A DNA stretch of 64,000 nt from Acidimicrobiales bacterium (GTDB lineage Bacteria > Actinomycetota > Acidimicrobiia > Acidimicrobiales > Poriferisodalaceae). A program made the position numbers and the translations under genes. The stretch is taken from assembly GCA_014239555.1 (NCBI GenBank), contig JAAZYR010000007.1:3141-67140 (forward strand), given 5' to 3'. Shown one piece after another: positions 2,390-36,251 of this stretch (its first letter is position 1; each line of letters begins with the position of its first letter). The notes beneath the pieces were generated by a model. That model did not search any database and was not told the origin of the DNA. It saw only the letters and a list, made by a program, of their open reading frames with translations.

Positions 2390-3904
2390 GTGATGACTCG
2401 ACCCGACCGCAGACGGCGGGGACGCACAGCAGCAGAAACAAGGCGCGAAACGTCGCCGAACCCGGTTCCTCCAGGCCTCACGGGGGGCCGCTATCAGCCC
2501 CTTACCATGCAACAGGTCACCGAAATAGTTGAGGGAACCTACACCCTGTTGGAAACGGTGGGTGTGAGCGAAGCACCCGATTTTGTAAATGACCTTGTCG
2601 TCGAGGCTGGCGGACAGGTGGTCAACGGGAGGCTGCTGTACCCGCGCGAACTGGTCCAATCTTTGGTCGAGCAGGCGCCATCAGGTTTCGTCCTTTGCGG
2701 TAGAGACCCCAAGTACGACTTAGATCTCTCCGCACACCGTGTCCATCTAGGAACGGGAGGTGCGGCACCGATGATTATCGACATTGACAACGGCCAGTAC
2801 CGTCCCTCAACCCTTCGAGATCTTTACGATGTAGCCAGGCTCGTTGAAGGTTTGCAACATATCCACTTTCTGAGCCGACCTCTTGTCGCAGGAGACATGC
2901 CCGATGAGGAAACACTTGACATAAATACTGCCTACGCATGCCTAGCGGCAACGAGGAAACATGTCGCCACTAGCGCCACAAACGGCGCGACAGCAGCAGA
3001 GGTCGCGGAACTGTGTTTCGAGATAGCGGGATCTCAAGAAATGTTTCTTCAACGCCCATTTCTCTCATTTAACGTCAACCACGTCACACCGCCCTTGCGG
3101 ATGAGTGAACATGCAATGGAGGTGCTCCGCGTTGCAGCGCAATTGGGAATACCCGCGCATGCAAATGTGTTTGGCCAAGTCGGCGCTTCGTCTCCAGCTG
3201 GAATTGCTGCTGCGATCAGCCAGGCCATGGCAGAAGCATTGGCGGGAATGGTCTTCAGTTGGCTTGTAAATCCTTCAGCCAAGGTAATTTGTGGACCTGA
3301 GCCGATGATCGTCGACTTACGTACCGGAGGTATGAGTGGCGGCGGTGGCGAACAAGCATTGGCGATGGCAGCGGCGACACAAGTTGCTCGATCGCTGGGC
3401 CTGCCCAATAGGTCGATTGCTGGGGCCAGCGACGCTAAAACCTCCGATGTCCAAAGTGGAGCAGAGAAGGCTTTAACCGTAACGTTGGCCGCCCAGGCGG
3501 GAAGCAATCTGGTCACACAAGCTTGCGGGATGCAGGCCGCACTTATGGCTGCCTCATTCGAAAGCTACGTCGTTGACAACGACATGCTCGGTGCCGTCAT
3601 GAGCTCCTTGCGTCCCGTGAAGACTCAAGAAATCGATTCGTTAATGATTCAGGAAGTCGTTGCAGGGGCCGGACATTTCCTAGGTGAATCCGACACACTC
3701 AAGAGGATGACCACGGACTTCGTCTATCCGAGCGTGGCTGATCGAACAGACTTCAAACTCTGGGAGCAAGCTGGGCGTCCCACGCAACTAGACGCGGCTC
3801 GCAGCGAAGTGGAACGGATTCTAGAGGAACACCCGGGTTGTTTCTTTGAAGACGGGCTTGACCAACGAATTCGTTCGCGGTTCGACATTCGACTTAATTG
3901 GTAA
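2390..3904 (+). CDS. Trimethylamine methyltransferase (MttB) family protein, non-pyrrolysine type
   Basis: 504-aa uninterrupted ORF with no in-frame TAG. It has the arginine-rich N-terminus (RRRRGRTAAETRRE) and the overall pattern typical of non-Pyl MttB-superfamily quaternary-amine methyltransferases. Confidence 0.8.
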   Translation: MMTRPDRRRRGRTAAETRRETSPNPVPPGLTGGRYQPLTMQQVTEIVEGTYTLLETVGVSEAPDFVNDLVVEAGGQVVNGRLLYPRELVQSLVEQAPSGFVLCGRDPKYDLDLSAHRVHLGTGGAAPMIIDIDNGQYRPSTLRDLYDVARLVEGLQHIHFLSRPLVAGDMPDEETLDINTAYACLAATRKHVATSATNGATAAEVAELCFEIAGSQEMFLQRPFLSFNVNHVTPPLRMSEHAMEVLRVAAQLGIPAHANVFGQVGASSPAGIAAAISQAMAEALAGMVFSWLVNPSAKVICGPEPMIVDLRTGGMSGGGGEQALAMAAATQVARSLGLPNRSIAGASDAKTSDVQSGAEKALTVTLAAQAGSNLVTQACGMQAALMAASFESYVVDNDMLGAVMSSLRPVKTQEIDSLMIQEVVAGAGHFLGESDTLKRMTTDFVYPSVADRTDFKLWEQAGRPTQLDAARSEVERILEEHPGCFFEDGLDQRIRSRFDIRLNW

Positions 3905-4204: not shown

Positions 4205-5128
4205 GTGCAGAATTCATCACTTTCCCCACAGCGCCGTAGCTATCTGGACTCGCTTGAATCGGAAGCTATTCATGTGTTCAGAGAAGTTGTTAGCCAATTT
4301 CGACGACCGGTCATGCTGTATTCGATTGGTAAAGACTCATCGGTGCTTTTGCACTTAGCGCGAAAAGCCTTCCACCCCGGATCGATTCCTTTCCCGCTAC
4401 TGCATATCGATACGACATGGAAGTTCAAAGAGATGATTGAATTTCGCGATCGAATCTGCGCCGAACTCGGTTTGGACCTACTAGTACACACCAACCTTGA
4501 AGGTCTGGCGGCTCAGATCAATCCGTTCGATCACGGATCTCAAACATATACCGACATCATGAAAACCGACGCGCTGAAACAGGCATTGACTCGTGGGAAC
4601 CACGACGCAGCCTTCGGCGGTGCACGCAGAGACGAGGAGCGCTCAAGGGCGAAGGAACGAATCTTTAGTTTTCGAGATTCGAACCACCGTTGGGATCCCA
4701 AGAATCAGAGACCCGAGCTATGGAATCTCTACAACGGAAAGGTTTCAGACGGAGAAAGTATCCGTGTTTTTCCCATAAGTAATTGGACCGAACTCGACGT
4801 TTGGCACTACATCCATCTTGAAAACATTGAGATAGTTCCGCTCTATCTCGCTGCACCCCGACCAATTGTGGAGCGTGAACAGAACTTAATCATGGTCGAC
4901 GACGCTCGATTCCCGCTAAGACCAAAAGAACAACCGCGCACGCGATCGGTGCGGTTTCGGACCTTAGGGTGTTACCCGCTATCAGGAGCTATCGAATCCA
5001 TCGCTTCAACCGTTCCAGAAGTTATTCAGGAAATGCTCTTAGATAGGCACTCCGAGCGTCAAGGCAGAATTATTGATCATGACCAACTCGCGTCGATGGA
5101 AGAAAAAAAACGTGAAGGGTATTTCTGA
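4205..5128 (+). CDS. cysD: Sulfate adenylyltransferase subunit 2
   Basis: Near-collinear with E. coli CysD as I recall it ([46 protein letters not shown]-terminal KKREGYF). GTG start. The stop overlaps the cysN start (TGATG). Confidence 0.95.
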
Positions 5129-7044
5129 TGTTTGAGAGCGACCCGCTCATCGAGTCAGACATCGACGCGTACCTGGATCAACGAGTTCGTAAGGACCTGG
5201 TGCGGTTTATCACCTGCGGTAGCGTTGATGACGGAAAATCCACGCTTATAGGACGTTTACTACACGATTCACAACTCATCGCAGACGACCATTTGGAGAC
5301 CTTGAAAACCGATTCTCAGCGCAGAACTGGAACCGACGACATTGATTTGTCTCTCGTCACCGACGGATTAAAGGCGGAACGAGAACAAGGAATCACAATT
5401 GATGTCGCGTACCAGTATTTCTCGACACGGCATCGTAATTTCATCATCGCGGATACACCGGGTCACGAGCAATACACCCGAAATATGGCGACTGGAGCAT
5501 CGACAGCAGACCTGGCTGTGATTCTGATAGATGCTCGAAAAGGAGTGGTGCAACAGACACGGCGACATTCCTACTTAGCCGCGCTTCTCGGCGTGAAACA
5601 CATAGTCATCGCGGTCAACAAAATGGATCTTGTTGACTATTCCGAACAGAGATATCTGGAGATCGTTGCCGAATACACCGAATATTCAGCGAACCTAAAC
5701 ATCGAATCGCTTGAGTACATTCCCCTCTCAGCGCTTCACGGCGACAACGTTGTCGAATCCAGTGAGGTGATGCCATGGTTTGTCGGGCCGACCTTGATTG
5801 ATTACCTCAACGCAGTAGAGGTAGCCGTACCCATTAGCACCAATGAGTTTCGCCTTCCTGTGCAACTAGTCCTTCGCTCCGGCGCCGATTTCAGAGGGTA
5901 TGCGGGGAGTATCACTTCGGGGCAAATTCACCGCGGTGATCGAGTCACGGTCCTCCCTTCCGGTGTTTCTTCCACTGTGCAACGCATAGTGACGTTTGAT
6001 GGTGATTTGGATATGGCATCTGCGGGGGACGCTATTGCGGTGACGCTTGGAGACGAGATTGACATGAGTCGAGGAGACCTCCTCGTCAAAGAGGGCGAGA
6101 ACGTCGAACTTGACACATCAATTGCAGCGACAATTATTTGGATGGCAGATAAACCGCTTGATCTTGGTGAACAGCTAATTCTGCAATCACATAATGGGAC
6201 CGCGAACGTGAGGGTTGACACGGTTCGATACCTATTAGACGTGAACACTGGCCAAAAAGCGAAAGCAACTGCCCTTCAACTTAACGAGATAGCCGAATGC
6301 TCGATAAGTGCTGATCGCAAATTGCTCTTTGAGTCTTATGAAAGCAATCGCGCCGGAGGTTCCTTTATTCTGATCAACCGAATTAGCAACTCGACTGTTG
6401 CAGCCGGGATGATTGCAGGTCCACTTTCCCCATGGGATCAGGCGCCAAAAGATTCACTCGAAGTGCAGGATTCAGAAATCGGGGCACTGGAACGGCAGCT
6501 GCGCTATCGGCAGCGTCCGTGCACTGTCCTATTAACCGGGCTCACCGGGGCCGGGAAAAGCAGCATTGCGACTGCGCTCGAACGTTGTTTATTTGACCGA
6601 GGGAACTCAACTGTGAGGTTGGACGGGGAAAATGTTCGCCTCGGAATTAGCAAAGATCTTGGATTTACGGCTGTGGATCGCTCCGAAAATCTCCGCCGTG
6701 TCGCGGAGATCGCTCACTTGATGAACAGTCAGGGATTGATTGCGATAGCGGCCCTGCTGGCACCACAGGCCGAGGCAAGGGCACGGGCTCGCCAGTTAGT
6801 GGGAGCTGACCAATGGGTCGAGGTGTTTCTCGACACGCCACTTTCAGTTTGTCGCAGCAGGGACACCACCGGTCTGTATGAAGCTGCTGACCGGGGTGAC
6901 ATCGAAGAATTTCCGGGAGTTTCAGCTACCTATGAGGCACCGGAAGACGCGGATTTGCGTTTAGATACTTCTGACATGACGGTGGACCGGTGCGTGGAAG
7001 TCATTGTCACGTTGCTCAAAGAGAAGGGCTTTATCCATGAGTGA
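5128..7044 (+). CDS. cysNC: Bifunctional sulfate adenylyltransferase subunit 1 (GTPase) fused to an APS-kinase-like domain
   Basis: GTPase motifs GSVDDGKST, DTPGHEQY and NKMD are present. The C-terminal roughly 190 aa has a P-loop (GLTGAGKSS) and APS-kinase-like sequence (LDGENVRLGISKDLGF). Confidence 0.93.
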   Translation: MFESDPLIESDIDAYLDQRVRKDLVRFITCGSVDDGKSTLIGRLLHDSQLIADDHLETLKTDSQRRTGTDDIDLSLVTDGLKAEREQGITIDVAYQYFSTRHRNFIIADTPGHEQYTRNMATGASTADLAVILIDARKGVVQQTRRHSYLAALLGVKHIVIAVNKMDLVDYSEQRYLEIVAEYTEYSANLNIESLEYIPLSALHGDNVVESSEVMPWFVGPTLIDYLNAVEVAVPISTNEFRLPVQLVLRSGADFRGYAGSITSGQIHRGDRVTVLPSGVSSTVQRIVTFDGDLDMASAGDAIAVTLGDEIDMSRGDLLVKEGENVELDTSIAATIIWMADKPLDLGEQLILQSHNGTANVRVDTVRYLLDVNTGQKAKATALQLNEIAECSISADRKLLFESYESNRAGGSFILINRISNSTVAAGMIAGPLSPWDQAPKDSLEVQDSEIGALERQLRYRQRPCTVLLTGLTGAGKSSIATALERCLFDRGNSTVRLDGENVRLGISKDLGFTAVDRSENLRRVAEIAHLMNSQGLIAIAALLAPQAEARARARQLVGADQWVEVFLDTPLSVCRSRDTTGLYEAADRGDIEEFPGVSATYEAPEDADLRLDTSDMTVDRCVEVIVTLLKEKGFIHE

Positions 7045-7642
7045 AGGCCCGACTTCGAACAACATCACCCGATCAGAGGGGTTGATCGATACCAGAGCCC
7101 GGAATCTGCGATTCGGACATGGATCCTGCACCGTTTGGTTTACCGGTCTTTCGGGATCCGGAAAATCTACCCTTGCTCTTGCTTTAGAGGCAGAACTGCA
7201 TTCTCGCGAGGTCGGAAGTTACGTCTTATACGGTGACAACATTCGGTTCGGTCTGAACAGCGATTTGGGCTTTTCTCCTTCGGAAAGAACCGAGAACATT
7301 CGCAGAGTTGGGGAAGTTGCGCGTCTCTTTTGTGACGCTGGACTGGTTGTTCTCACTGCTTTCATATCGCCATACCTTCGCGATCGAGAGCTTGTACGAA
7401 ACCTCCACGCTCCTTCAACGTTTATTGAGGTGTACCTCAATACCCCTCTTGAAGAGTGCGAGCGACGCGACGAAAAAGGTTTGTACCGTAAAGCTCGCAA
7501 CGGAGAAATCAAAGAATTCACGGGGATTTCCGCCCCGTATGAACCGCCGGTGAACCCGGAACTAGTTGTAGATACGCGAAGACCGCTGGAAGAATGCGTC
7601 AACGAACTGTTGGCGATGTTGGCAAGCCACGGCGCTATTTAA
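7037..7642 (+). CDS. cysC: Adenylylsulfate (APS) kinase, stand-alone copy
   Basis: The ATG at 7037 overlaps the cysNC stop (ATGAGTGA). Motifs: FTGLSGSGKSTLA, NIRRVGEVARL, TAFISPY, GLYRKARNGEIKEFTGISAPYEPP. The ORF-track start at 7004 lies inside cysNC and is unlikely. Confidence 0.88.
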   Translation: MSEGPTSNNITRSEGLIDTRARNLRFGHGSCTVWFTGLSGSGKSTLALALEAELHSREVGSYVLYGDNIRFGLNSDLGFSPSERTENIRRVGEVARLFCDAGLVVLTAFISPYLRDRELVRNLHAPSTFIEVYLNTPLEECERRDEKGLYRKARNGEIKEFTGISAPYEPPVNPELVVDTRRPLEECVNELLAMLASHGAI

Positions 7643-22214: not shown

Positions 22215-23672
22215 TCAAGTTGACGTTTGCTCGGGAAGTTGCGCCCGTGGATACAAAAACCACATAAGTGGCGCAACGAGCAGCATGAGTAGCCCGAGTA
22301 CGAGCCACATGAGGTCATATCTCGCAATTGTGTGGGTCCCGTTTAATACAGTGATGGCTATAGCGACACCCATTCCTCCCACTGCGTACCGCAGGCTTTG
22401 ATGAATACCGTTCGCTGTAGCAATGGACCGTTCGGGAATATCGCGTAGTGCTGCGCTGTTGAGTTGACTCGCGAGAATTCCCATACCCAACCCAAACAAA
22501 ACTGAAGCTGGGAAGAAAGCGAGCCAGTACTCAACCTCCTCATCGAGAAGGAAGTACAGCCAAAAGAAGCCCACAGTTGCAGTCAACGAGGCAAGTGTCA
22601 TTATTCCTCGGAACCCGTGCTTGTCCGCCCAACGCCCGCCCATGACAGCCACGCACGCAGAAATTACTGGAGATGGAGTAAAAGCCAACCCAACTTTAGT
22701 TTTGCTGTAACCCCAAATCTCTGTGAGGAAAAGGGGCCATAAGAACCAACTTGTGAAGGCGCCGACCATGGCGAAAGTCACCGCGATGTTGGAAATGGTG
22801 AAGGAGCGAATACGAAACAAAGCCGGATCAAACAAGGGCTCTGGATGGTTCGAAGATCGGCGGATGAAGATTGGGAGTAGCAGCGCTGCACCCACAAAGC
22901 AGGCCAAGGTGTACGGAGAGGCCCAACCCCAAGCCCTTCCCTGGAGGGTTCCGAGGACAAGCAAAAACACGGATCCGCTGCCCATCAAGACACCAAGGAG
23001 ATCCAGCGACTGCTTTGTTGACGGCTCAGCGGTTTCCCTCAAGAAGAACTTGGCTCCCAGCAGACCTAAGCCGATGATGGGAACGAGTACCAGATACACC
23101 CAACGCCAAGAGCTGATTTCCAAGACGAACGCCGCGAAACCTGGTGACAATCCGGAAGCAAACATTCCAGCCGCGGCCCAAAGCCCGATCACGCTGGCTT
23201 GTTTTGCCTGCGGAAATTGTGGAAGTACTAGAGCGAGAGACGAAGGCACCGTTAATGCCCCGAACATGCCCTGAAGAGCCCTTGCCAAAACGAGGATTAG
23301 AGGGTTAGGGGCGAGGCCAGCACCTAATGCACCAAGGAGTAAGCCGAACAATCCGATACGAAATATTGTCAACCGCCCGTAACGGTCGGCGAGGCGACCT
23401 CCTGCCAACATGGTGGTGGCAAACGCCAATGAGTAGCCCGCAATAATCCAGCCAGTCATGCCGGTGCTGACTCCAGGAAACGACCTCACTATCTCGGGAA
23501 ACGCAACGTTAGAGACTGTCACGTTGACCGTGCCGAGGACGAAGGCAAGGGATCCGGTTGCTAGCGCGAAATAAGGTCGCCCCGCCCGCTGCTTTCCGAT
23601 ATCGGGTGCGTGTTCACCGCGTTGCACAGCGAACACCATTGGGGTTCGCTGATCTAGCCGGGCGTCATCCAC
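22215..23672 (-). CDS. MFS transporter (14-TMS DHA2-like)
   Basis: Highly hydrophobic 485-aa ORF with an MFS motif-A-like GRLADRYGR. The start is uncertain. Confidence 0.85.
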   Translation of the reverse strand: MDDARLDQRTPMVFAVQRGEHAPDIGKQRAGRPYFALATGSLAFVLGTVNVTVSNVAFPEIVRSFPGVSTGMTGWIIAGYSLAFATTMLAGGRLADRYGRLTIFRIGLFGLLLGALGAGLAPNPLILVLARALQGMFGALTVPSSLALVLPQFPQAKQASVIGLWAAAGMFASGLSPGFAAFVLEISSWRWVYLVLVPIIGLGLLGAKFFLRETAEPSTKQSLDLLGVLMGSGSVFLLVLGTLQGRAWGWASPYTLACFVGAALLLPIFIRRSSNHPEPLFDPALFRIRSFTISNIAVTFAMVGAFTSWFLWPLFLTEIWGYSKTKVGLAFTPSPVISACVAVMGGRWADKHGFRGIMTLASLTATVGFFWLYFLLDEEVEYWLAFFPASVLFGLGMGILASQLNSAALRDIPERSIATANGIHQSLRYAVGGMGVAIAITVLNGTHTIARYDLMWLVLGLLMLLVAPLMWFLYPRAQLPEQTST

Positions 23673-23734: not shown

Positions 23735-24490
23735 ATGGAAACTGATCTTGTTGACACCAAGACAAAGGGCCACATAACGATCATTACGCTGCATCGTCGC
23801 GACAAACGAAACGCTTTCGACCCAAACCTGACTTTTGCTCTCAATCAGGCGCTGGATTCGTTTGAAGACGACCCTGACCAGTGGGTAGCCGTACTAACGG
23901 GCGGGACCGACATGTTTTCCGCCGGGAGTGACCTCAAAGAGGGAAGCGGTAAGTCTGACCGGGGGGGCGAGTACGGCATAATTCGCCGGCGCCGGGTCAA
24001 ACCACTGGTGGCGGCAGCGGAAGGGATGGCCCTTGGGGGCGGACTGGAAATACTGTTTTGCTGTGACCTAATTGTCGCTTCAACGGATCTCCGCTTGGGT
24101 TTACCCGAAGTTAAGCGTGGGGTGTTGCCCACCAGCGGCGGGCTTTTTCGAGCCCTCCGGTCGCTTCCACTGCACGTAGCGAAAGAAGTTGTCTTAACGG
24201 GTGAAGAGCTATCAGCGGAACGGGCGTTGCAGTATGGCCTAATCAATCGACTTGTGGGGCCGGGGCAAGCCTTAGAAGTCGCTGTTGCATTGGCCGAACA
24301 AATCGCGTCGAATTCTCCTACCTCGACACGGCACTCTGTGCAGGCAATGGAACGGATCCTCGCTAGCGGAGACGAACTTGGCTGGTCTGTGACTGACTAC
24401 GCTCGATCAGAGGTTTTTGCGAGCGAAGACCGCAAAGAGGGCATCAAAGCGTTTTTTGAACGGCGTGACCCAGAATGGAAAGGTCGCTAA
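23735..24490 (+). CDS. Enoyl-CoA hydratase/isomerase (crotonase) family
   Basis: FSAGSDLKE and ALGGGLEILFCCD oxyanion-hole motifs. C-terminal EGIKAFFERRDPEW. Confidence 0.9.
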   Translation: METDLVDTKTKGHITIITLHRRDKRNAFDPNLTFALNQALDSFEDDPDQWVAVLTGGTDMFSAGSDLKEGSGKSDRGGEYGIIRRRRVKPLVAAAEGMALGGGLEILFCCDLIVASTDLRLGLPEVKRGVLPTSGGLFRALRSLPLHVAKEVVLTGEELSAERALQYGLINRLVGPGQALEVAVALAEQIASNSPTSTRHSVQAMERILASGDELGWSVTDYARSEVFASEDRKEGIKAFFERRDPEWKGR

Positions 24491-25056
24491 TGCGATTATC
24501 GATTCCTGACGAGAGCCAACTTTCCACATCGCAGCGCAAGCTTCGAGACGCAGTTGTGGGCAGCAGGAAAGGCCTGGGCCCCGAAATTTGGGGACGTGGC
24601 CCGTTTGGCGTGTGGCAGAACGCTCCTAACGTGGGCCAGCCTGCATTGGATTTAGGCGGGGCTGTTCGCTTCAGTACCGAGATCCCCGCCGATGTTCGTG
24701 AGGTAGCTATTTGCACCGTTGGGGTCCATTATCGAGCGAAATTCGAATTCGCGGCGCACAAAGCAATCGGTATCGCCGCGGGCCTTGAAACGGATGCGCT
24801 CGATCGTCTGGCTGAAGGAGAAAGTCCAGGATGGGTCGGGGCCTTAGAGCTAACGCACCGATATACGAAAACGCTTCTGGAGGAACACCGTGTGGCTCAA
24901 GGGTTGCATGATGAACTCACAGCCGAATTTGGTGAACAAGGTGCTGTGGAAATTGTGACAACCATCGGCTACTACTGCCTGATCTGTCTCACGCTCAACG
25001 CCTTCGAGGTTCCGCTGTCGACTCAAATGAATGATCCGTGGCCTGAAGATAGTTGA
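24490..25056 (+). CDS. Carboxymuconolactone decarboxylase (CMD/AhpD-like) family protein
   Basis: The start ATG overlaps the crotonase stop (TAATG). The REVAICTVGVHYRAKFEFAAH segment is typical of the CMD family. Confidence 0.75.
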   Translation: MRLSIPDESQLSTSQRKLRDAVVGSRKGLGPEIWGRGPFGVWQNAPNVGQPALDLGGAVRFSTEIPADVREVAICTVGVHYRAKFEFAAHKAIGIAAGLETDALDRLAEGESPGWVGALELTHRYTKTLLEEHRVAQGLHDELTAEFGEQGAVEIVTTIGYYCLICLTLNAFEVPLSTQMNDPWPEDS

Positions 25057-25248
25057 ATGCCCTAGGGACCGCAGGCCTCCACAATGAATGTTTGTATTGA
25101 ATTTCTCGTGAAATGTCGGGTTAGTGGTGGCCTCCGCGAGACCGAGGTCAAAGTCGCCCCCAAAAGATAGGGAGACAGCCCGAAGTAGCGGTCGGCCCAG
25201 GGTTGAGTGGTAAACGTCACGGTTTGCTCGTGATCTACGCTAAGGGAC

Positions 25249-25893
25249 ATGTCTTCCGAAGCTGTGCAGATAACCGTTTGGTCCGATTACCTCTGACCTT
25301 GGTGTTGGGTTGGGGCCGTGCGTCTCGACGAGTTGGCTGAACAAGAGGGGGACGGTATTGCGATCGAGTGGAAATCGTTCTTGTTGCGGCCTGAACCCGA
25401 GCAGAGGACGCTCGCGGAATTTACTGAATATACGAAAAGTTGGGAACGTCCAGCTGGGCTTGAACCTCTAGCTGAGTTCAACACCCCGTGGTCTGGTGCT
25501 AGCCCACCGCCATCACATTCTTTACCTGCGGCCATAGCCGGCAAAACTGCCGCCACATTCGGCCAAGAGGCCTGGCGCCGCTACCACCAAAAGTTGTTGC
25601 GTGCCTATTTTATTGAGAACCGGGATATTTCGAGTTCTCATGTTCTTTTAGAAGTTGCTCGCGAAGCTGACATCGATGCGAATGTTTTCGAAGAGACCCG
25701 AATAGCCAACGGTAAAGACTTTGAGACAGAGGTGTTCGCGGAGTACAACGAGGCCTTAACGAGTGGCGTTAATGGGGTGCCAGCTGTAGTGATTGATCAC
25801 CGGTACTTAGTTTCTGGTGCCGTTGAAGTTGAGCATTACCAAAAAGCTCTGGCCCACTACAGAGAAATTCGAGACGAAGAAAATAGCCGCTAA
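25249..25893 (+). CDS. DsbA/FrnE-like thiol:disulfide oxidoreductase with in-frame TGA at the first Cys of CxxC (selenoprotein candidate, or pseudogene/sequencing error)
   Basis: The ATG at 25249 reads MSSEAVQITVWSDYL-TGA(25294-25296)-PWCWVGAVRLDELAEQ. This continues in frame into the 25318..25893 ORF. The WSDxxCPWC motif of this family is reconstituted if the TGA is decoded. Confidence 0.65.
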
Positions 25894-25898
25894 TAGTG

Positions 25899-25919
25899 CT
25901 CTGGGGTGCGTCGCCAGAG
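25899..25919 (+). terminator. Weak hairpin after the DsbA-like gene
   Basis: CTCTGG-N9-CCAGAG followed by TT, 6 nt after the stop. Confidence 0.25.
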
Positions 25920-26114
25920 TTGATCTAGGCCTTACGGACTTATCACTAAGGAAATTAGTCGCCGCTGAGTTCCGAGAGGTTCCGAACTGACTCTTCTATG
26001 TGACTTGCCACAGTGCTTGTCGTCACTGTTCTAGATGTAGGGAACGACGCTGGTCAGCGCTAGACCGAACCAGCGCTAGTTTCGTGCCGGTCGGAGATAT
26101 AGGGAGAATCGCGA

Positions 26115-28535
26115 ATGCTGTCGCCGTATCGAGTACTTGATCTCACTGATGAACGAGGCCAACTGGCGGGTGCCACTCTTGCCGACCTTGGGGCAGAGGT
26201 TATTTTGGTGGAGCCTCCGGACGGTTCACGTTCGCGCCGACTTCCGCCGTTTGTTGTGGGACGAGAGGGTGACCCTGAAGCATCTCTGTGGTTTTGGTCA
26301 TATAACCGCGGGAAGCGAAGTATCTCCATGGATCTTGAGCATCCGGCCGATCGCGAACGTTTTCTAGAGTTAGTCGCAGGTGCAGACATTGTTCTTGAGT
26401 CGGACCGGCCAGGGGCTATGGCTGAACGTGGACTCGGCTACGACGATCTCGCGGCGGTGAATCCTGAAATCGTGGTGACATCGATTTCTCCGTTTGGTCA
26501 GAGCGGACCCAAAGCCGACTGGGCCGCGACGGACCTCACTGTGGCTGCGGCAGCGATGGTGCCCAAGATGACCGGCGACGAAGACCGCGCACCTTTGCGT
26601 GTGCCTCTAGCACAGTCATTTCTACATGCTTCAGCCGAAGCTGCAGGAGCGTCCCTCATCGCTTTACATGAACGTAACCGTTCCGGTAAGGGGCAACACG
26701 TTGACGTCAGTGCTCAGCAATCTTTTATGCAAGCCACCCAATCGATGGTTCTGTGTCACTTGTACAACTCACCCGAGACGACTCGGATGAGTGGCGGAGC
26801 GGCCGTGGGTCCATTCCGAATTCGTCTCCGTTCCCCGGCTGCCGACGGATTCGTCTCCACCACAATCCTTTTTGGCGAAGCGATCGCCCCCTTTAGTTCC
26901 CGCCTTTTTGAATGGATCCATGAGGAGGGCATGTGTGAAGCTAGTGATCTCGAGATTGACTGGCTCAACTTCGTTGAAGGAGTGACAACCGGCCGCATTG
27001 GGCTGGGGGAATACGACAGAATCCAAGAAGTCGCTGCCCAATTCTCTGCGACAAAGACCAAAGCTGAACTGCTCTCGACAGCTCTTGAGAAGCGTCTGCT
27101 GATCGTGCCGATTTGCAACGTCCAGGAAGTTTCGGAACTTGACCAGTACCAGGACCGTGACTTCTGGCGTGAAATCGAATGCCCTGATTTCGGGCCAGTT
27201 CAATTTCCGGGCCCTATGGCTAAATTCTCGGCGACGCCGCTTGATATATCCGTGCCCCCGCCTGCCATCGGTCAGGACAACGGTGAGATCAAAACCCGGG
27301 TTGCCGAACCCACCAACGAACTTGAGGCGAGGCCAGTAGCACCACTCTCTGATATCAAGATCCTTGACCTGATGTGGGTGATGGCGGGGCCGGCCGCAAC
27401 TCGAGTATTCACCGATTGGGGGGCGACGGTGGTGAGGGTTGAGTCCTCACACAAAATTGAAGGAGCGCGTACGTTTCAGCCGTTGCTCAACAATGAAGGA
27501 GGTGCAGAAAACAGCGGGCTGTTCCAAAACCTCAACGCGGGCAAACTCGGCCTTACCGTCGCGATGGACACCCCTGAAGCGAGAGAGCTGATCCTCGACC
27601 TTGTGCGCTGGGCGGATGTGGTCTGTGAGTCGTTCTCACCCAAAGCCATGGCCGGATGGAACCTGACGTATGAGGATTTAAAGGAAGTGAATCCTGACGT
27701 CATCATGACAAGTAGTTGCTTGTTCGGACAAGACGGCCCGATGTCGCATCTAGCGGGTTTCGGAACCATGGGGGCCTCAATGTCGGGTTTCTATGAAATG
27801 ACTGGTTGGCCTGACCGCGACCCAGCAGGAGTAGCTGGGGCGTACACCGACTATGTCTCTCCCCGCTATCTCGAGGTTGCAATTCTTGCCGCCCTTGACC
27901 ATCGGCGCCGAACTGGCGAGGGTCAATACATCGATCTGTCCCAAGCTGAGTCGTCGATGAACTTTTTAACCCCGCATCTACTTAACTGGACGGTTAATGG
28001 GCAGCTAGCCCCGAAGATCGGGAACGCTGACCCGTCGATGTTGCCCCACGGCATCCACCCCTGTTCGGGAGACGATGAGTGGGTAGCGGTCTCGTGTGAA
28101 AACGATGAACAGTGGCGCAGCTTGTGCGAGCTTCTGGGCTTTTCCACCGAGTGGGGCGAAACCGACATTGCTGGTCGACGGCTCCTTGGGCCGCAGATCG
28201 AATCCGCAATTGAGGCGTGGACATCGGTTCGAAGGGGGGCCGAGGTTCACTCCAGTTTGCAAGCCGTCGGAGTACCCGCCCATGTTGTGCAGGACTCGAT
28301 CGTGGTGGCTAGTGACCCACAACTGGAACACCGCAACCACTTCCGGCAAGCGTCCCACGACGAACATGGTTCGATGTGGATAGAAGGACCCAGATTCTCG
28401 ATGTCCCGTAGCACCGATGTGATTAGCAACGCAGCACCAACTCTTGGCCAGCACACTTTCGATGTACTTGAGGGAATCCTGGGCTACGACGCCGACCACA
28501 TAGCGGAACTGGCCGTGGCAGGGGTCCTTGAGTGA
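26115..28535 (+). CDS. Tandem (two-domain) class III CoA-transferase, DddD-like architecture
   Basis: There are two CaiB/BaiF-type modules. The N-module runs YRVLDLTD...GKGQHVDVSAQQS. The C-module runs IKILDLMW...GEGQYIDLSQAES. Confidence 0.88.
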   Translation: MLSPYRVLDLTDERGQLAGATLADLGAEVILVEPPDGSRSRRLPPFVVGREGDPEASLWFWSYNRGKRSISMDLEHPADRERFLELVAGADIVLESDRPGAMAERGLGYDDLAAVNPEIVVTSISPFGQSGPKADWAATDLTVAAAAMVPKMTGDEDRAPLRVPLAQSFLHASAEAAGASLIALHERNRSGKGQHVDVSAQQSFMQATQSMVLCHLYNSPETTRMSGGAAVGPFRIRLRSPAADGFVSTTILFGEAIAPFSSRLFEWIHEEGMCEASDLEIDWLNFVEGVTTGRIGLGEYDRIQEVAAQFSATKTKAELLSTALEKRLLIVPICNVQEVSELDQYQDRDFWREIECPDFGPVQFPGPMAKFSATPLDISVPPPAIGQDNGEIKTRVAEPTNELEARPVAPLSDIKILDLMWVMAGPAATRVFTDWGATVVRVESSHKIEGARTFQPLLNNEGGAENSGLFQNLNAGKLGLTVAMDTPEARELILDLVRWADVVCESFSPKAMAGWNLTYEDLKEVNPDVIMTSSCLFGQDGPMSHLAGFGTMGASMSGFYEMTGWPDRDPAGVAGAYTDYVSPRYLEVAILAALDHRRRTGEGQYIDLSQAESSMNFLTPHLLNWTVNGQLAPKIGNADPSMLPHGIHPCSGDDEWVAVSCENDEQWRSLCELLGFSTEWGETDIAGRRLLGPQIESAIEAWTSVRRGAEVHSSLQAVGVPAHVVQDSIVVASDPQLEHRNHFRQASHDEHGSMWIEGPRFSMSRSTDVISNAAPTLGQHTFDVLEGILGYDADHIAELAVAGVLE

Positions 28536-29154: not shown

Positions 29155-30390
29155 ATGCGCCTTCAAGAAGTGCGCACATACGCAACGGTGCCCCCCACCG
29201 GGGTCGGGGGTTCGTTCTGGGTGTTCGTAGAAGTCGAAACTGACGATGGGATTACCGGTGTAGGGGAGTGTTACGGAGTCCCCTTTTCGGCAGACATCGC
29301 GTCTTCGATGGTCGCGGATGTATTCGAACGTTACGTTCTGGGAGTAGATCCCCATCACCTGGAAACTCTTTTCCGACGGGTCTATTCGGCGGGATTTACT
29401 CAACGCCCCGATCTTTCCACTATGGGGGTTTTCAGCGGTATCGAGATGGCAATTTGGGACATCCTTGGCAAGGCCCATGGAGTACCGGTGTACGAACTGT
29501 TGGGAGGAAGATTTCACGACCGGCTTCGCACCTACTCCTACCTATATCCATTGGAAACAGATGCTTCCGGTAACGCACTCCCAGATCAAGCTGACGTTTA
29601 CCATGACGGGGACGCTGCCGCCGAAAGCGCGTTGCGGTACCTCGATATGGGTTTCACCGCCGTTAAGCAAGACCCGACCGGGCCGTATTCGTTTCAAGGG
29701 GGCCGGGAACTATCACTATCTGAGTTAAGTCGAGCGGAATATTCGATCCGTCGCATCAGAGAAGCCGTCGGAGATCGGGCCGACATTTTGTTCGGGACCC
29801 ACGGGCAGATGACCGCAGGTTCAGCAATTCGTCTTGCGCAACGTCTAGAGCCTTATGACCCGCTCTGGTTCGAAGAGCCCTGCCCTCCTGATCAGGTGGA
29901 AGCGATCGGCGCTGTTGCCGCGGCGACCACCATTCCTGTCGCCGCAGGTGAACGAGTCACCACTCGCAAGGAGTTTCATGACTTGCTCAAAGCGGGAGTA
30001 AAAATTCTTCAACCGAACGTAGGTCGGAGCGGGGGGTTGTGGGAAACCAAGAAAATTGCTGCCCTGGCAGAATTGTTTAACGCTCAGATCGCCCCTCACA
30101 TCTATTGCGGGCCAATTGCGCATGCCGCGGCGACTCACCTGGGATTCACCCTTCCAAATTTTCTGATCCTGGAAACTATCCTCAGCGATTTTCACGACGC
30201 TGTCGTAAGAGAACCTTTGGAGTGGGATGCCGGTTGGATGATGCCTCCAACTGGGCCGGGGTTAGGTGTTGAATTGAATCACGACATTGTCTTAGCGAAT
30301 CCGTACACGACAGGTGGGCGCCTTCACCTCGAGATGACACAAACGCCACTTGATTCAAACAACAGCCGCTTAGCTCAAGAGTTGGATTGA
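29155..30390 (+). CDS. Enolase-superfamily enzyme (mandelate racemase/muconate lactonizing family, acid-sugar dehydratase-like)
   Basis: N-terminal capping domain (VEVETDDGITGVGEC) and barrel-domain motifs (LWFEEP, AAGER). Confidence 0.85.
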   Translation: MRLQEVRTYATVPPTGVGGSFWVFVEVETDDGITGVGECYGVPFSADIASSMVADVFERYVLGVDPHHLETLFRRVYSAGFTQRPDLSTMGVFSGIEMAIWDILGKAHGVPVYELLGGRFHDRLRTYSYLYPLETDASGNALPDQADVYHDGDAAAESALRYLDMGFTAVKQDPTGPYSFQGGRELSLSELSRAEYSIRRIREAVGDRADILFGTHGQMTAGSAIRLAQRLEPYDPLWFEEPCPPDQVEAIGAVAAATTIPVAAGERVTTRKEFHDLLKAGVKILQPNVGRSGGLWETKKIAALAELFNAQIAPHIYCGPIAHAAATHLGFTLPNFLILETILSDFHDAVVREPLEWDAGWMMPPTGPGLGVELNHDIVLANPYTTGGRLHLEMTQTPLDSNNSRLAQELD

Positions 30391-31709: not shown

Positions 31710-32972
31710 GTGTCTCTCATAAATAGCTCAAGAATTGCAGACCCAGAACTTGCACCCGAAGGGCATCGTTCAATCGAATGGGCGCGCCGCCACTCACCAT
31801 TAGTGGATGGATTTCTTCGAGACCGTCTAAAAGATGGTGCTCTAGAAGGTCGCCGCGTCGCTGTCGTGGTTCACCTGGAAGCGAAAACGGCGCTTTTGGC
31901 GACGGTATTGGCTGATGCTGGTGCTCAGGTGGTCGCCGCTGGTTCGAATCCTCATTCAACCCGAGATGAAATCGCTGCAGCTCTGGTCGACCGCGGCGTG
32001 GAGGTCCACTCAACTCGCGATAGTGGATACGACGCCTGGGAAAAAGACCTAATGGCAGTCGCGGACACCGGCCCGGAACTAATTATTGATGATGGCGCTG
32101 AACTGACGATCCGAATGGCGAGCCAGCGACCCGCTGCGTTTCAGGAACTGAAGGGGGTGACAGAACAAACAACCACAGGAGTTGCACGGTTAGTCGAATT
32201 GGAATCTCGCGGCCGTTTGCCGTTCCCTGTTCTGGCAGCTAACGATGCTGCCTGTAAACATCTCTTTGACAACAAATATGGAACAGGTCAGAGCACTGTT
32301 CAGGCCATCTTGAATCTGACCAACATGTTGATGGCTGGCAAAGACGTCGCAATCCTTGGTTATGGGTGGGTGGGGCGCGGAATAGCAGCTCACGTGCGTG
32401 CGTTGGGAGGCACCGCATGGGTCATTGAGATAGATCCCGTGAAGGCTCTGGAAGGGTTTATGGACGGGCACCGCGTTGGCAGCCTAAGCGACGTTTTGCC
32501 TCGGGCAGATTTCATTTTGACGGCGACCGGGGGGCGCCGCGCAGTGGCGCGTCACCATTTTTCCATGATGAAGGATGGCGCAATCTTGGCCAATGCCGGC
32601 CACCATGATCTGGAAATCGACGTCGAAGCGCTGGCCGATGAAGCATCTGACTTCAGGACGGTACGCCCAGGCATTGATGAGTACAAAATCAACAACAACC
32701 AGTCGGTCTTGGTGTTGGCGAATGGAGCCCTGGTCAACATTGCAGGTGGCCTTGGGCACCCGATCGAAATCATGGATCTTTCGTTCGCCGTGCAAGGTGT
32801 GGGATGTCACGAACTGGCCCGAGGAACGGTACCTCAAGGAGTGAACGTCATAGATCCCTTATTAGATTCAGAAATAGCCCGGGCGAAACTCTCATCCCAT
32901 GGGATTCTTCTCGACGTAAAAGAACCTGGCCAAGCTGACATAATTGACGATTTACTCGGACCGGAAGCCTGA
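31710..32972 (+). CDS. ahcY: Adenosylhomocysteinase (short form)
   Basis: HLEAKTA, SNPHSTRDE, VTEQTTTGV, and NAD motif GYGWVGRG. GTG start. Confidence 0.92.
   Translation: MSLINSSRIADPELAPEGHRSIEWARRHSPLVDGFLRDRLKDGALEGRRVAVVVHLEAKTALLATVLADAGAQVVAAGSNPHSTRDEIAAALVDRGVEVHSTRDSGYDAWEKDLMAVADTGPELIIDDGAELTIRMASQRPAAFQELKGVTEQTTTGVARLVELESRGRLPFPVLAANDAACKHLFDNKYGTGQSTVQAILNLTNMLMAGKDVAILGYGWVGRGIAAHVRALGGTAWVIEIDPVKALEGFMDGHRVGSLSDVLPRADFILTATGGRRAVARHHFSMMKDGAILANAGHHDLEIDVEALADEASDFRTVRPGIDEYKINNNQSVLVLANGALVNIAGGLGHPIEIMDLSFAVQGVGCHELARGTVPQGVNVIDPLLDSEIARAKLSSHGILLDVKEPGQADIIDDLLGPEA

Positions 32973-33699: not shown

Positions 33700-36251
<2,552 letters not shown>

Follow-up and report, generated by a model that had tools for sequence, protein, structure and literature searches.

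The locus considered here raises a simple question: does an in-frame TGA codon end a gene, or is it read as selenocysteine (Sec) near the start of one? The codon lies at positions 25294-25296 on the plus strand of a 64,000-nucleotide stretch of contig JAAZYR010000007.1 (assembly GCA_014239555.1), which comes from an Acidimicrobiales bacterium and is referred to below as the window. Our analysis points with high confidence to the second answer, as positions 25249-25893 very probably encode a 214-residue, cytoplasmic, FrnE-like (COG2761) selenoprotein of the DsbA family from a marine bacterium of the class Acidimicrobiia, in which Sec would occupy the first position of the active-site motif U16-P-W-C19. 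A first-pass annotation, made from the letters of the window, had proposed a UxxC selenoprotein at this position, and this proposal is now supported by the conservation of the TGA, by coding constraint on both of its sides, by a hairpin specific to the Sec forms and by a published orthologue.

The frame opens after an in-frame TGA stop at 25231-25233, and its first start codon is the ATG at 25249, with the sequence AAGGGA (25242-25247, plus strand) 1 nt upstream as a possible but poorly spaced Shine-Dalgarno sequence. From this ATG the frame reads MSSEAVQITVWSDYL, then the TGA at 25294-25296, then PWCWVGAVRLDELAEQEG..., and runs without a shift into the open reading frame (ORF) listed at 25318-25893, where it closes with TAA (25891-25893) followed by TAG. 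The upstream stop, start codon, continuous frame and length of about 214 codons given by the first-pass annotation were all confirmed by reading and translation, which counted 214 sense codons including that of Sec16. When Cys was put in place of the stop, the Pfam domain DSBA (PF01323) matched residues 7-202 over profile positions 1-191 of 191 (E = 5.6e-25). The N-terminal extension is needed, because this domain is complete only with the 23 N-terminal codons, and among orthologues the start position is kept as either ATG or GTG. No NCBIfam model reached its cut-off for the window protein, no sigma-70-like promoter was found by a simple scan of 24900-26200, and the promoter and terminator scan yielded nothing useful. 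The UxxC motif U16-P17-W18-C19 occupies 25294-25305, with C19 as the sole cysteine of the protein. Towards the other end of the gene, the codon of Pro178 (25780-25782, plus strand, within G-V-P) is invariant in three alignments (A1, A2 and A5); this residue is presumably the cis-Pro of the thioredoxin fold, which lies opposite the active site.

The behaviour of the TGA among relatives carries much of the argument. A scan of the GTDB collection with one genome per species returned 44 loci; of these, 43, often from marine sources, carried the label Acidimicrobiia, Acidimicrobiales or Actinomycetota, and one was described only as an uncultured bacterium. Together with metagenome loci this gave a comparative set of roughly 90 Sec and 25 Cys forms. 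In tblastn searches, query residues 1-213 aligned with the GTDB loci through the TGA without interruption. The aligned codon was TGA in 39 of the 42 readable GTDB loci, TGC in two and TAC in one, the last in a decayed extra copy, while the 77 metagenome loci had TGA (52), TGT (14) or TGC (11). The TGA was kept among orthologues at 38-93% identity and was the same in all four independent assemblies that were read, including the metagenome-assembled genome (MAG) GCA_965662015.1. The C-terminal part of the window protein also had exact copies in 61 blocks of the contig collection. As the first-pass annotation had stated, the TGA aligns with the first Cys of the CPWC motif in homologues, including FrnE, and its suggestion that orthologues be aligned at this codon was borne out, since TGA and Cys codons alternate there.

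The codons on both sides of the TGA have been kept as protein. Upstream, VWSD(Y/F)L is conserved, with the Asp, Tyr/Phe and Leu codons (GAY-TAY-CTN) changing essentially at third positions only. Downstream, PWC.V(G/A)(A/T)VRL is conserved with similar third-position variation, the Pro being encoded by CCT, CCG, CCC or CCA and Cys19 by TGT or TGC. The extra copy with TAC is found at about 437-904 of locus L043 (CAWCAL010000008.1, from the same MAG as locus L039); its match is limited to residues 6-162, and after SDFL it has TAC-CTG-TGG-TGC (Y-L-W-C) where U-P-W-C would stand, with the hairpin sequence described below still present. It is probably a pseudogenised duplicate.

For Sec to be inserted, a bacterial selenocysteine insertion sequence (SECIS) would be expected after the UGA, and a candidate was found at 25309-25329 (plus strand). 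It consists of an 8-bp stem formed by 25309-25316 (GUUGGGGC) and 25322-25329 (GUCUCGAC), closed by the apical loop CGUGC (25317-25321), with a predicted energy of -7.9 kcal/mol. The stem begins after a gap of 12 nt from the UGA, and the loop begins 23 nt from the U of the UGA (20 nt past the UGA). When 40 Sec-form sequences were aligned from the TGA onward, 92.4% of the cells in this helix were paired, compared with 40-48% when the 3' arm was slid by 1-3 columns. The pair 25315/25323 occurred as G-C (15), G-U (13) or A-U (10) and was never unpaired, and the pair 25314/25324 showed one complete swap from G-C to C-G (in L040). RNAalifold independently predicted the same helix as the sole conserved structure within 84 nt. 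The two hairpins drawn in the first-pass annotation, pairing 25315-25323 with 25328-25337 and 25316-25326 with 25345-25355, were not conserved.

The Cys forms provided a control for the hairpin. In the same register, 74 unique Sec forms had a mean of 6.7 of the 8 pairs and a mean canonical-hairpin energy of -6.9 kcal/mol, whereas 23 unique Cys forms had 4.0 pairs and +2.3 kcal/mol. Of 68 Sec forms, 67 had the loop of their best qualifying hairpin starting at a distance of 22-24 nt from the U of the UGA, and in the Cys forms the loop position was scattered. Random replacement of synonymous codons reduced the pass rate of a consensus-style scan from 60% to 4%. Synonymous sites downstream of the TGA are constrained: the Gly codon at +6 was GGG in 65 cases and GGC in two, with GGC (46), GGT (16), GGG (10) and GGA (4) used at Gly +18, and 74 of 83 Sec forms used CGT or CGC for Arg +9, compared with CGG, CGC and CGA in the Cys forms. 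In divergent subgroups of Sec forms, found in sediment and soil metagenomes, a hairpin with a G-U-containing loop was present at an equal distance, built from other amino acid codons and other stems (for example GGCCGA-GGU-UCGGCU in L097). Most stem columns are also under amino-acid constraint, which is a caveat on the conservation of the hairpin; because of this shared constraint, independent evidence comes most strongly from the G/A-U/C covariation, the GGG bias and the divergent stems.

The hairpin agrees in every point with the published consensus for a bacterial SECIS (bSECIS), with its 8-bp stem, CGUGC loop, 23-nt spacing and energy of -7.9 kcal/mol: the consensus asks for a loop of 3-9 nt with a G within the first two loop positions and then a U, a stem of 4-16 bp, a spacing of 16-37 nt and a minimum free energy (MFE) of at most -7.5 kcal/mol (PMC13188914). 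Like the SECIS of the E. coli fdhF type, it is a hairpin within the coding region, directly after the UGA, with an early G then a U in the loop, and it agrees with the fdhF-type and bSECISearch consensus in having an 8-bp upper stem and an energy of -7.5 kcal/mol or lower. It differs from the fdhF type in having an unrelated stem sequence and no recognised bulged U, and a longer lower stem is predicted in a marine subclade only. In that subclade (L001-L020), RNAalifold adds a lower stem spanning window positions 25297-25345, in which CCUU, directly behind the UGA, is paired with an AAGR some 50 nt further on; this lower stem is not kept in distant Sec forms.

Several observations weigh against a SECIS-directed insertion of Sec. 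The single-sequence fold of 25285-25370 was no more stable than that of shuffled sequences (z = +0.49), the MFE of the wider region favoured other pairings, and a C-U mismatch was present in the stem of 5 of 38 distinct GTDB Sec-form sequences. Rfam gave no match, either across the whole window at the gathering threshold or within 25150-25500 at E <= 10, as would be expected from the sparse coverage of bacterial SECIS elements in that database. Finally, neither selA, selB or selD nor a tRNA-Sec was present in the window or in about 48 related loci, although this absence says little because these loci cover only 1-2% of each genome. The first-pass annotation had judged the support for a SECIS as weak; by the comparative evidence above, the support for the putative element is instead strong, being comparative and not thermodynamic.

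The search for the Sec machinery was made in several ways. ARAGORN reported no tRNA-Sec in the window or the 44 loci, and Rfam none in the window. Pfam annotation of about 40 ORFs and the precomputed neighbour annotation revealed no selA, selB or selD in the window, and in tblastn searches of the E. coli SelA, SelB and SelD proteins against the window and 48 loci the sole match was the GTPase domain of CysN. Support for the Sec reading comes indirectly from the sister order Actinomarinales, also within the Acidimicrobiia, as selA, selB, selC and selD have been reported in 84 of 84 complete genomes of Actinomarina (bioRxiv 10.64898/2026.04.03.716425). This preprint was the only literature found on Acidimicrobiales or FrnE with selenocysteine. 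The Actinobacteria have long been counted among the selenoprotein-rich phyla. A crude scan of the window and loci for other selenoprotein genes, combining an in-frame TGA, a redox motif and a hairpin, gave noise only, and no further convincing case was found among the TGA-joined ORF pairs across the window.

Three other explanations of the TGA have to be weighed. The first-pass annotation had named a one-base nonsense mutation in a Cys-type DsbA gene and a sequencing error as alternatives, and both TGC and TGT are indeed one base away from TGA; moreover, public gene callers all take the codon as a stop. A recent mutation, a pseudogene or an assembly error would, however, be hard to reconcile with an identical TGA in four independent assemblies, with its recurrence across dozens of species down to 38% identity, with purifying selection on both flanks and with a hairpin that is co-conserved behind it. 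The orthologous TGAs also stem from many different projects and not from one shared assembly pipeline, so that we see practically no chance of an explanation of this kind. It could also be supposed that two products are made, a 15-codon peptide ending at the TGA and a 191-residue protein initiated at GTG 25318, which is a legal start codon in the window and the one used by automatic annotation. However, 31 of 84 Sec-form orthologues have GTA, GTC or GTT at this position, none of which can serve as a start, and the seven codons between the TGA and the GTG (PWCWVGA) are kept as protein with synonymous variation. Such a truncated protein would also miss the first 17 or so positions of the Pfam profile, strand beta1 and the opening turns of the active-site helix, together with the redox motif, whose loss the first-pass annotation had pointed out. 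Internal initiation therefore appears extremely improbable, and the GTG at 25318-25320 (plus strand) is better read as the codon of Val24, placed in the SECIS loop. Error, recent nonsense mutation and a peptide with reinitiation at the GTG are thus excluded because of the assemblies, the conservation of the TGA, the coding constraint and the non-start Val24 codons taken together.

What the inserted residue would be is a separate matter, as the comparative data prove, at the level of sequence, that the UGA is read through, and they do not identify the residue. The UGA could in principle be decoded without Sec, either by a genome-wide or context-specific reassignment to Trp, Gly or Cys or by near-cognate suppression stimulated by the hairpin, and no selABCD genes were seen in the sequences examined (the window and related loci). 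A reassigned genetic code is contradicted by the window itself, because TGA ends 26 of its 48 large ORFs and is the commonest true stop there. The four genes for which the first-pass annotation had given TGA as a true stop, cysD (4205-5128), cysNC (5128-7044), ahcY (31710-32972) and argG (34845-36251), do all end in it. The codon alternates only with Cys, and does so at the nucleophilic Cys of CxxC, as is characteristic of a Sec/Cys pair. The hairpin fits the SelB-type bSECIS consensus in both loop sequence and spacing, the sister order is reported to carry the complete set of sel genes, and the family has been listed among the selenoproteins since 2005. Decoding without Sec is accordingly given only a slight chance, and the same small chance is given to a lineage-specific, non-canonical reading of the UGA, in which Cys or another residue would be inserted by hairpin-stimulated read-through without a full Sec machinery. 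Much more likely is a milder reading, in which nearly all Acidimicrobiia members of this FrnE-like group of orthologues are Sec forms, as the counts in 39 of 42 species suggest.

All public gene calls found for this orthologue group (clusters P0001-P0090) begin at GTG 25318 or downstream of it, giving products of 191, 170 or 158 aa. Nearly all of the approximately 50 nearest protein clusters (50-92% identity) have 186-193 residues, cover about 86-89% of the query and start at the equivalent of Val24, and remoter clusters (43-49% identity) have 204-214 residues with SD(Y/F)LCPWC. Where names are given, they are DsbA family protein, isomerase or hypothetical protein. The calls starting at GTG 25318 are truncation artefacts, without strand beta1 and the redox motif.

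By sequence, the best match among solved structures is Deinococcus radiodurans FrnE (5cnw, E = 3.7e-13), and SCO1869 of Streptomyces coelicolor is also among the nearest. The segment IWSDIACPWCYIG of FrnE aligns with VWSDYL[U]PWCWVG, which places its CPWC opposite UPWC. For a structural view, the Cys homologue P0028 (49% identical to the window protein) was modelled with AlphaFold2 (AF2) from a 45-sequence alignment, giving a predicted local distance difference test (pLDDT) score of 97. In this model, strand beta1 comprises residues 6-12 and CPWC opens helix alpha1 (17-36); a protein initiated at Val24 would therefore lose both beta1 and CPWC. The best Foldseek match of the model was FrnE (5co3), with a template modelling (TM) score of 0.81, followed by SCO1869, the cytosolic reductase DsbM, YjbH, HCCA isomerase and kappa-class glutathione S-transferases (GSTs). 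The structure predicted for this homologue, in which a helical domain is inserted into a thioredoxin fold and which is closest to FrnE, supports placing the window protein in the FrnE-like group.

FrnE of D. radiodurans (PDB 5cnw and 5co3) is a cytoplasmic disulfide oxidoreductase/isomerase of the DsbA family and, like the window protein, has no signal peptide ahead of its active site. The active site of the window protein is at residues 16-19, and a cytoplasmic location is suggested by the only 15, mostly polar, residues that precede it. The two proteins are about 25% identical, and FrnE has Cys in place of Sec. FrnE also exceeds the window protein by about 45 residues and carries a Cys-containing tail at the C-terminus (a C239S mutant was crystallised), whereas the window protein stops after residue 214 (…YREIRDEENSR) without such a tail. 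This tail belongs to the Deinococcus protein and may not be typical of the FrnE-like subfamily as a whole. Pseudomonas aeruginosa DsbM, Bacillus subtilis YjbH, HCCA isomerase and the kappa-class GSTs, all cytosolic and of the DsbA fold, likewise combine a thioredoxin fold and a helical insertion (TM 0.68-0.80 to the P0028 model), but differ in their lower sequence similarity, in their other active sites and in having no selenoprotein among them; their functions are those of a glutathione-dependent isomerase or transferase, or of an adaptor protein.

From the canonical bacterial pathway, it can be envisaged that the hairpin with the CGUGC loop, 12 nt past the UGA, would act as the SECIS, and that SelB with GTP and Sec-tRNA(Sec) would bind its loop and deliver Sec before release factor 2 could terminate translation. 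Sec16 would then be the attacking residue of the active site. As C19 is the sole cysteine, the redox centre would be a single U16/C19 selenenylsulfide couple, and by analogy with its family the protein could cycle between the selenol/thiol form and the U16-C19 selenenylsulfide, reducing or isomerising disulfides of cytoplasmic substrates. The neighbouring genes encode an enoyl-CoA hydratase, an unknown 188-aa protein, a CoA-transferase and an F420H2-quinone-reductase-like protein. Gene order around the locus is kept among close relatives only, and the context therefore gives no clue to the substrate.

The family itself has been described before. In the Sargasso Sea selenoproteome of 2005 (Zhang, Fomenko and Gladyshev; PMC1088965) it is listed as "DsbA-like protein, COG2761, UxxC, 9 sequences", and the supplement gives AACY01078317 as MTSSQLVKITVWSDYLuPWCWVGTVRLDELANREGD.... 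Aligned with the window protein, this sequence shows 68% identity across 208 of 214 residues, without gaps (E = 4e-114), which bears out the statement of the first-pass annotation that DsbA-like Sec proteins had been reported from marine metagenomes. Its DNA has the same hairpin as the window, GUUGGGAC-UGUAC-GUCUCGAC, and AACY01178397, whose SECIS is drawn in a figure of the 2005 paper, has GUCGGGAC-AGUUC-GUCUUGAG at the same position. The 2005 UxxC family and the window gene have PF01323, the UxxC motif and the marine habitat in common, with no essential difference between them, although the 2005 set is heterogeneous and some of its members (such as AACY01028493) fall in other DsbA subgroups. 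The window gene therefore truly belongs to a selenoprotein family that was published in 2005 and is already known.

Later surveys have also included such proteins. The Global Ocean Sampling (GOS) selenoproteome of 2008 lists "DsbA 1, pfam01323, UxxC" with 63 Sec sequences and 704 Cys homologues, enriched in marine samples, and the common Pfam family, motif and habitat indicate that this is probably the family of the window gene. A 2016 survey counted DsbA-like selenoproteins in 41 organisms, and a 2026 review (PMC13188914) names the family "DsbA-like protein form 1". An assignment of the marine DsbA-like family to Acidimicrobiia was not found in the published descriptions consulted. The same review also contains "DsbA-like form 2, DxxUP, crotonase family". 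The D-Y-L-U-P at the active site of the window protein has this D-x-x-U-P pattern as well, and the enoyl-CoA hydratase gene (23735-24490) lies 0.76 kb upstream, an adjacency that is not kept across species.

Some other features of the window and its relatives were observed. ARAGORN predicted an 87-nt tRNA-Arg(ACG) at 23329-23415 (minus strand), inside a major facilitator superfamily transporter gene (22215-23639, minus strand); with no Rfam tRNA at the gathering threshold, it is probably a false positive. The gene at 2390-3904 (plus strand) belongs to the MttB family (trimethylamine methyltransferase-like), with a full-length match to Pfam MTTB (E = 9e-109) and no internal stop, and is probably a non-pyrrolysine member. 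A sulfate-activation cluster at 4205-7642 (plus strand) comprises cysD, a fusion of cysN with adenosine 5'-phosphosulfate (APS) kinase (cysNC) and a second, stand-alone APS kinase ORF, which overlaps the end of cysNC by 41 nt; the kinase domain is thus duplicated. In GCA_965662015.1 (L045 13854-16980, corresponding to window 29155-30390), a mandelate-racemase-like gene is reduced to 91 aa and about 2.1 kb of extra DNA is present, with genes for a 539-aa protein without a Pfam match and a PhyH-family protein and a 53-aa ORF. This insertion is not found in the window or in three other assemblies and represents a strain-level indel.

To summarise, the main value of these results is a correction of annotation, as the public calls of 158-191 residues lose the catalytic motif and NCBIfam has no model to name the protein. 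General knowledge of selenoproteins is unchanged by them. What is added is the assignment of the family to the Acidimicrobiia, where the Sec form is predominant (39 of 42 species), a precise and compact SECIS with a Cys-form control and a measurable constraint on synonymous sites, and the observation that public annotations are truncated. If the group is indeed almost always of the Sec form there, it would point to Sec as a widespread trait of a class for which its use has only just been reported.

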